From a virus (taxonomy: Duplodnaviria; Heunggongvirae; Uroviricota; Caudoviricetes), in the IMG/VR virus record IMGVR_UViG_2718218100_000013: a stretch of DNA of 9,449 nt; one strand, given 5' to 3'. This document shows positions 3,529 to 3,755 of this stretch, piece after piece. The translations under genes were made by a program, and so were the position numbers. Each line of letters begins with the position of its first letter. The stretch's first letter is position 1. Under the pieces are notes generated by a model, which had not been told where the DNA came from, did not search any database, and saw only the letters and a list, made by a program, of their open reading frames with translations.

Positions 3529-3755
3529 CCTCTACCTCTTCTACCTAATCATCTTTCAGGTCAGTAATGGCGCGGCTTTCAGATGGGTAGAGGACTTTTC
3601 GTGGCCCTCTACCCATCCTCTACCCGCCCCTCACAAACGACCTTAATCATGGTAGAGGGGGTAGAGGGGTTTTATTAGCCTTCTACCTAGCCCTCTACCC
3701 ACTTATCATGTTGAATAATATGCGTTTATTTCATTCAGGTAGATGGGGTAGAGGG
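3529..3755. repeat. Iteron cluster, putative origin of replication: at least 10 copies of CCCTCTACC / GGTAGAGGG in both orientations flanking an AT-rich segment
   Basis: Direct copies at 3529-3536, 3540-3545, 3605-3614, 3617-3625, 3682-3687, 3691-3700. Inverted copies at 3585-3593, 3651-3660, 3660-3669, 3745-3755. AT-rich stretch around 3708-3745. Directly 3' of the primase gene. Confidence 0.65.

Follow-up and report, generated by a model that had tools for sequence, protein, structure and literature searches.

The window, that is, the whole 9,449-nucleotide stretch of DNA analyzed here, matches part of the chromosome of Escherichia coli strain 472 at 100% identity and many O157:H7 genomes at 99.5–99.8%. 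The island that it holds sits in the chromosome between cspD/yljB and clpS. An 11-bp att core, ATGATAGTTAT, is present at window positions 92–102 and again approximately 174 bp beyond the window end, and is the same as the Table S1 entry for phage-inducible chromosomal islands (PICIs) at cspD–clpS (PMC6092414). Every gene of the island is on the minus strand and, along with an Icd-like gene, the following are found:

8226–9449, minus strand, integrase gene
7140–7364, minus strand, AlpA gene
5514–5813, minus strand, DUF4222 gene
3769–5517, minus strand, initiator gene, 582 aa, with D5_N, an SF3-type helicase core, and a C-terminal origin-binding domain
3173–3481, minus strand, downstream gene, homologue of EcCICFT073 c1496 (73% identity; PHROG 1231)
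2065–2553, minus strand, TerS gene
979–1902, minus strand, capsid gene, 307 aa

As in Gram-negative PICIs, int, alpA, and pri-rep run in one direction and are accompanied by a PICI-specific att site. Because of this gene content on one strand and the flanking att core, the element is assigned from its sequence to the Gram-negative EcCICFT073 family of PICIs, as a 9.5-kb E. coli island.

A cluster of short repeats (iterons) occupies the whole gap between the initiator gene and the downstream gene, beginning 13 nt past the stop codon of the former (3769–3771, minus strand) and ending 47 bp before the start codon of the latter. A search of the 9,449-base window for CCCTCTACC with at most one mismatch returned 10 matches, all of them inside 3528–3755; the chance expectation is 0.97, and 10 matches were reached in none of 200 shuffles. 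One more copy, TCTTCTACC at 3537, departs from CCCTCTACC at two positions and brings the total to 11. The 6-bp core TCTACC/GGTAGA occurs 11 times, always between 3531 and 3752, and a whole-window count found it absent from the other 9.2 kb, where about 4.5 cores would be expected from length alone; this absence may reflect avoidance of stray initiator sites. Six iterons start on the plus strand (3528, 3537, 3605, 3616, 3679, and 3691) and five on the minus strand (3586, 3651, 3660, 3738, and 3747), with neighboring tandem copies spaced 9–12 bp. A first-pass annotation had described at least ten copies of a 9-bp motif in both orientations within approximately 230 bp, at 3529–3755, flanking an AT-rich segment and lying directly 3′ of the 582-aa gene. 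This description is borne out by the 11 copies in 3528–3755, with the earlier coordinates right to within one base, by the 13-nt distance from the stop codon, and by the inverted pairs around a 38-bp segment of 26% GC. From the initiator gene outward, the region is composed as follows:

3738–3755, minus strand, iteron pair adjoining the stop codon, CCATCTACC + CCCTCTACC in the minus-strand reading, core columns invariant in relatives
3700–3737, no strand, AT-rich spacer, 38 bp, 26% GC, putative DNA unwinding element
3679–3699, plus strand, iteron pair across the AT-rich spacer in opposite orientation, CCTTCTACC + CCCTCTACC
3651–3668, minus strand, iteron pair, CCCTCTACC twice, spaced 9 bp
3605–3624, plus strand, iteron pair, CCCTCTACC + TCCTCTACC, spaced 11 bp
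3586–3594, minus strand, lone iteron TCCTCTACC
3559–3582, minus strand, non-iteron block, CTGAAAGCCGCGCCATTACTG on the sense strand, nearly invariant in 51 origins of the TCTACC class
3528–3545, plus strand, distal iteron pair, TCCTCTACC + TCTTCTACC
3488–3510, minus strand, conserved AAAACTTTTTAAAC block with GAGGGGGG, the ribosome-binding site of the downstream gene
3137–3154, minus strand, terminator-like hairpin after the downstream gene

The AT-rich spacer is bordered by facing pairs, with plus-strand copies at 3679 and 3691 and minus-strand copies at 3738 and 3747, and is off-center in the cluster, with two iterons on one side and nine on the other. Of all 30-mers in the gap, the least stable falls within this spacer (dG −32.6; window mean −40.1, sd 3.6), this instability being moderate rather than extreme (rank 271 of 9,420 30-mers, the top 3% of the window). 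A motif search found no DnaA box within the region, and a scan of 3100–4000 for sigma-70-like promoters and terminators gave none in the gap ahead of the downstream gene. Because this gap is free of terminator and promoter-like sites and the hairpin follows the downstream gene, transcripts of the initiator gene probably run on through the cluster. For the downstream gene, either 3481 or 3418 may be the start: RefSeq takes the ATG at 3418, and residue 22 is where the PHROG 1231 match sets in, while the in-frame ATG at 3481 comes after the conserved GAGGGGGG site, which serves the start of EcCICFT073 c1496. A tract resembling AAAACTTTTT at the far end of the region (3497–3510) is also seen with each of the other iteron classes and in P4 crr, and its role is not separable, since it overlaps the leader of the downstream gene.

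The initiator carries the RefSeq name "DNA primase family protein." It matches the Pfam families D5_N (9e-15) and DUF5906 (5e-10) as well as TIGR01613, and its helicase core matches SaPI5 PriRep (PDB 7OLA, E = 4.5e-15). Three parts of its gene matter for what follows:

5068–5517, minus strand, N-terminal region, codons 1–150, without a recognizable primase domain
3796–4062, minus strand, winged-helix origin-binding domain, codons 486–574, homologous to that of P4 alpha
3880–3891, minus strand, codons 543–546, A543/S546 in the window, compared with loci L002–L010 and L014–L078

Residues 486–574 match the P4 alpha origin-binding domain (1KA8) with E = 1e-5 as a single sequence and with E = 8.3e-28 as a profile of nine diverse relatives, and we infer that this winged-helix domain is the reader of the iterons. 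The first-pass annotation had suspected that a P4 alpha-like C-terminal DNA-binding domain was missing and that another protein might recognize the repeats; the former suspicion is contradicted by the profile match, and since such a domain is present in the initiator, no other iteron-reading protein need be invoked. Its description of the 582-aa product as a primase/helicase holds for the helicase (D5_N, DUF5906) and fails for the primase, in that no N-terminal primase domain is recognizable. The first 150 residues gave no Pfam match even at E ≤ 10. Moreover, in an alignment with P4 alpha and a 794-aa Morganella relative, whose N-terminus matches the Pfam families Zn_Ribbon_Prim and Toprim_3, the zinc ribbon, the EGxATA glutamate, and the DxD were found to be missing. 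The name "primase" stems from the D5_N-helicase part of the protein (TIGR01613). Because the initiator has no recognizable primase domain, priming would probably fall to host DnaG or a helper phage.

The closest tested counterpart is the pri-ori region of EcCICFT073. The window initiator is 91% identical to EcCICFT073 Pri (c1495, 584 aa) and 97% identical to the protein of EcCIIHE3034, an island with the same att site and core. The EcCICFT073 gene run comprises a DUF4222 gene, the 584-aa Pri, a 289-bp gap, c1496, and SSB. Both islands are of the same type, with int, alpA, and one-way transcription, and both have the DUF4222 gene, an initiator of 582–584 aa, a gap of approximately 290 bp containing TCTACC-core iterons and an AT-rich spacer, and a c1496-like gene; the two intergenic regions are 64% identical, with iteron cores at matching positions. 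They differ in that the iteron 5′ flank is T[G/A] in EcCICFT073 and EcCIIHE3034, but CC in the window, and that the binding domain has N543/G546 in the former two and A543/S546 in the latter. In addition, SSB and perC follow the origin in EcCICFT073, whereas TerS and the capsid gene stand there in the window; EcCICFT073 has no TerS and uses cos packaging, yet the homologous iteron cluster is kept. In the EcCICFT073 work, a pri-ori fragment kept a thermosensitive plasmid at the restrictive temperature, and deletion of pri or ori lowered maintenance of the pri-ori plasmid (Fillol-Salom, 2018, ISME J, PMC6092414). The membership of the element among the PICIs and the 91% identity of its initiator to EcCICFT073 Pri thus lend support to the earlier proposal of a satellite iteron origin. 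A text search of the literature for the iteron sequence returned nothing relevant; the published iteron sequences stand in a figure, outside such a search.

Relatives were collected with an alignment-based scan as 80 IMG/VR loci with initiators 53–100% identical to that of the window; a one-genome-per-species scan with a single protein gave only 3 loci. An iteron cluster lies directly 3′ of the initiator gene in 80 of 80, with a 7-mer repeated 5–10 times within 330 bp past the stop codon at each locus, and Serratia and Morganella relatives and P4 crr likewise have a cluster directly 3′ of the gene. Four motifs were found across the relatives, namely TCTACC, ACTGTTCAC, GGTGTTCAT, and GGTATACAT. 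The layout is common to most of the 80, and the motif changes with the C-terminal domain of the initiator. The window, EcCICFT073, the Serratia and Morganella relatives, L081, and L084 all have two direct copies after the stop codon, a spacer of 36–38 bp, and then inverted copies, and the distance from the first direct to the first inverted iteron is 53–55 bp in the window, Serratia, Morganella, and L081/L084. The spacer is of 26% GC in the window, and those of Serratia, Morganella, and L081/L084 are AT-rich by eye and different in sequence. An origin read by a protein would be expected to show just this, a motif that changes within an arrangement that stays constant.

Conservation within the TCTACC class was assessed in 51 distinct origins. 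It is highest in the six core columns (majority fraction 0.91, 33 of 66 invariant) and lowest in the three bases 5′ of the core (0.56, 0 invariant), with the spacer columns at 0.785 (core vs. spacer, p = 1e-6).

Several relatives depart from this pattern. In L073–L076 and L079, the two halves of the origin stand in reverse order relative to the gene within the 330 bp after it, so that the direct pair, AT-rich spacer, and inverted copy are found approximately 200 bp downstream and not beside the stop codon. A block resembling CTGAAAGCCGCGCCATTACTG occurs in L079, which has another iteron, and a hairpin-forming sequence replaces the block in L073 and L075. In L094 (4153–5753; E. coli O157:H7 EC4115, PICI at ycfD–phoQ), the initiator slot between the DUF4222 gene and the c1496-like and SSB genes is taken by a 466-aa RepA-family helicase, with the iteron AAAAGTGAGG in both orientations 3′ of its gene. 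In this second O157:H7 PICI, a single example, the initiator and iteron set both differ from those of the window. It seems that an initiator and its origin are swapped together, as one cassette.

Among origins of known type, those of the SaPIs offer one comparison (Ubeda et al.; Qiao et al., 2022, PMC9371898). A SaPI origin follows rep closely and consists of 6–12 iterons, two or more of which stand on either side of an AT-rich center and point in opposite directions; a C-terminal winged helix reads them (PMC9371898). The window has 11 iterons that begin right after the initiator gene. Two or more lie on either side of an AT-rich region, in opposite orientation, this region not being central, and the initiator combines a helicase with a C-terminal winged helix (D5_N, DUF5906, 7OLA, 1KA8). 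On the other hand, only the helicase core of the SaPI proteins is detectably homologous to the window initiator, SaPI iterons are of 5–6 bp whereas those of the window are of 8–9 bp with a 6-bp core, the AT-rich spacer is central in SaPIs and near one cluster end in the window, and the host here is Gram-negative.

The cluster also resembles the cis replication region of P4: in the annotation of the P4 record, crr comes immediately 3′ of alpha, and its type 1 repeats, which run in both orientations, are short and surround AT-rich spacers. The placement is, as proposed from the sequence at first reading, like that of SaPI origins and of P4 crr. Alpha shares with the window initiator a D5_N-helicase core (42% identical) and a homologous origin-binding domain (1KA8), although the identity of the latter is only 30%, and alpha has a zinc ribbon and Toprim primase, both missing from the window initiator. 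P4 requires two separated cis regions, ori and crr, whereas the island has a single cluster. The P4 type I iteron TGTTCACC has no exact copy in the window, in agreement with the earlier statement that the motifs differ, and its 10 copies at one mismatch are scattered at chance level, with none inside the origin. Iteron origins of theta plasmids (RepA/pi/TrfA) resemble the cluster in their short repeats, element-encoded initiator, and adjoining AT-rich region. However, they have DnaA boxes, none of which is present in the window origin, and direct repeats of approximately 20 bp rather than short iterons in both orientations, and the window initiator is itself an SF3-type helicase, unrelated to plasmid Rep proteins.

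Overall, the cluster is very probably the vegetative replication origin of an EcCICFT073-family PICI. It would be an origin of an already described kind, tested in the close relative EcCICFT073 and assigned here by orthology and comparison. The comparison with P4 brings up another possible role, in which the cluster is a crr-like enhancer or a copy-control (handcuffing) region bound by the initiator, with initiation occurring elsewhere: the repeats that come directly after alpha in P4 form crr and not ori, which is 4.5 kb away from them, and the window initiator shares the alpha binding domain. This role is unlikely, in that no second cluster exists and no TCTACC core is found outside 3531–3752, one cluster that contains its own AT-rich spacer agrees with the SaPI rule (PMC9371898), and EcCICFT073 pri plus its downstream region sufficed for plasmid maintenance in the experiments cited above (PMC6092414). 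An array of operators, through which the initiator or an island regulator controls the downstream genes or the initiator itself with no role in replication, would account for a cluster that fills the gap up to 47 bp before a start codon. Autoregulation is frequent among plasmid iteron-binding initiators. Nevertheless, the repeats come after the initiator gene and not before it, the gap has no sigma-70-like promoter or terminator, suggestive of read-through, the downstream gene varies among relatives that keep the same iterons, and the orthologous EcCICFT073 region has, in the plasmid assays described, a replication phenotype (PMC6092414). An operator array without a replication role is therefore very unlikely, and the repeats may have a regulatory side role beside replication.

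The inverted repeats might instead act as structured RNA in the read-through transcript, the sense strand of the region folding to −116 kcal/mol (z = −8.1). Such a fold is an automatic by-product of inverted iterons, and base pairing does not require one core in all copies; iteron orientations are unbalanced in relatives (10 in one direction vs. 3 in the other in Morganella), and an Rfam search of 3100–3900 gave only sub-threshold chance matches, making an RNA function extremely unlikely. Nor is there much to recommend a packaging (pac) site recognized by the small terminase of the island, a reading that can be considered almost negligible: TerS is encoded at 2065–2553 and small terminases can bind repeated sites, but EcCICFT073 has homologous iterons with no TerS and with cos packaging, and the iteron sequence co-varies with the binding domain of the initiator.

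For the cluster as a replication origin, the working model is that of the SaPIs (PMC9371898), from which we infer binding, melting, loading, and the source of primers. On induction, the 582-aa initiator would be made from the gene just upstream, and its C-terminal winged-helix domain would bind the 11 TCTACC-core iterons. The two facing iteron pairs would place two helicase rings (hexamers) on either side of the 38-bp spacer, and the AT-rich spacer would then melt. Like the SaPI Rep proteins, for which self-loading has been described, the SF3-type helicase could dispense with a separate loader, and primers would come from host DnaG or the helper phage.

In contrast to its relatives L002–L009, the island lacks SSB and perC genes downstream of the origin, and little is left past the capsid gene: there is no protease, decoration, or other head gene, and the approximately 880 bp from the capsid gene to the att core at 92–102 are without an annotated gene. 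The island may be a decayed or reduced form. If so, its origin could have kept its sequence and yet have gone out of use.

Comparison of binding domains with iterons bears on the specificity of the initiator. The helicase cores are 62% identical between the window and Serratia and 46% identical between Serratia and P4, whereas the corresponding values for the binding domain are 33% and 44%, and it is Serratia and P4 whose iterons share TGTTCAC. By these sequence identities, the binding domain tracks the iteron and not the helicase tree. Within the TCTACC class, the base two positions 5′ of the core is C in 28 of 29 distinct loci with A543/S546 and T in 28 of 28 with N543/G546 (Fisher 2e-13, a value that ignores descent and linkage). 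N-terminal alleles of the initiator are reshuffled relative to the 543/546 site. In a single-sequence AlphaFold model of the C-terminal domain, of low confidence (pLDDT 62) and used for helix positions only, residues 543 and 546 fall where the third helix of the domain begins. A second case comes from the clade of 53% identity, in which the last 85 residues of L085 and L088 differ only as KTRGVV vs. KARGMV, residues presumed to form the wing of the binding domain; the iterons are GTGTTCAT (8 copies) in L085 and GTATACAT (5 copies) in L088, a two-base change made in all copies. Since domain and iterons are less than 300 bp apart, co-inheritance alone would link them, and only the concerted change in all iteron copies points to selection by a reader. 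Tentatively, and with doubt prevailing, the binding domains and iterons of enterobacterial PICIs might be regarded as a natural series of specificity switches, in which the window element would belong to the CC group.

With the cluster read as the replication origin, the present assignment places the origin for a PICI common to many Shiga-toxin-producing strains of E. coli, O157:H7 and others, and points to the domain predicted to read its iterons, which is useful for annotation and for work on satellite mobilization. Knowledge of how PICIs replicate is left as before, and a by-product of the comparison is that a protein annotated as a primase has no recognizable primase domain. The minimal residue changes that track the iterons offer a guide to how winged-helix initiators change their target. 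If these changes are causal, they would provide a simple recognition code for winged helices of the P4 alpha type and would define separate replication-specificity groups, allowing related satellites to share a cell without cross-firing.
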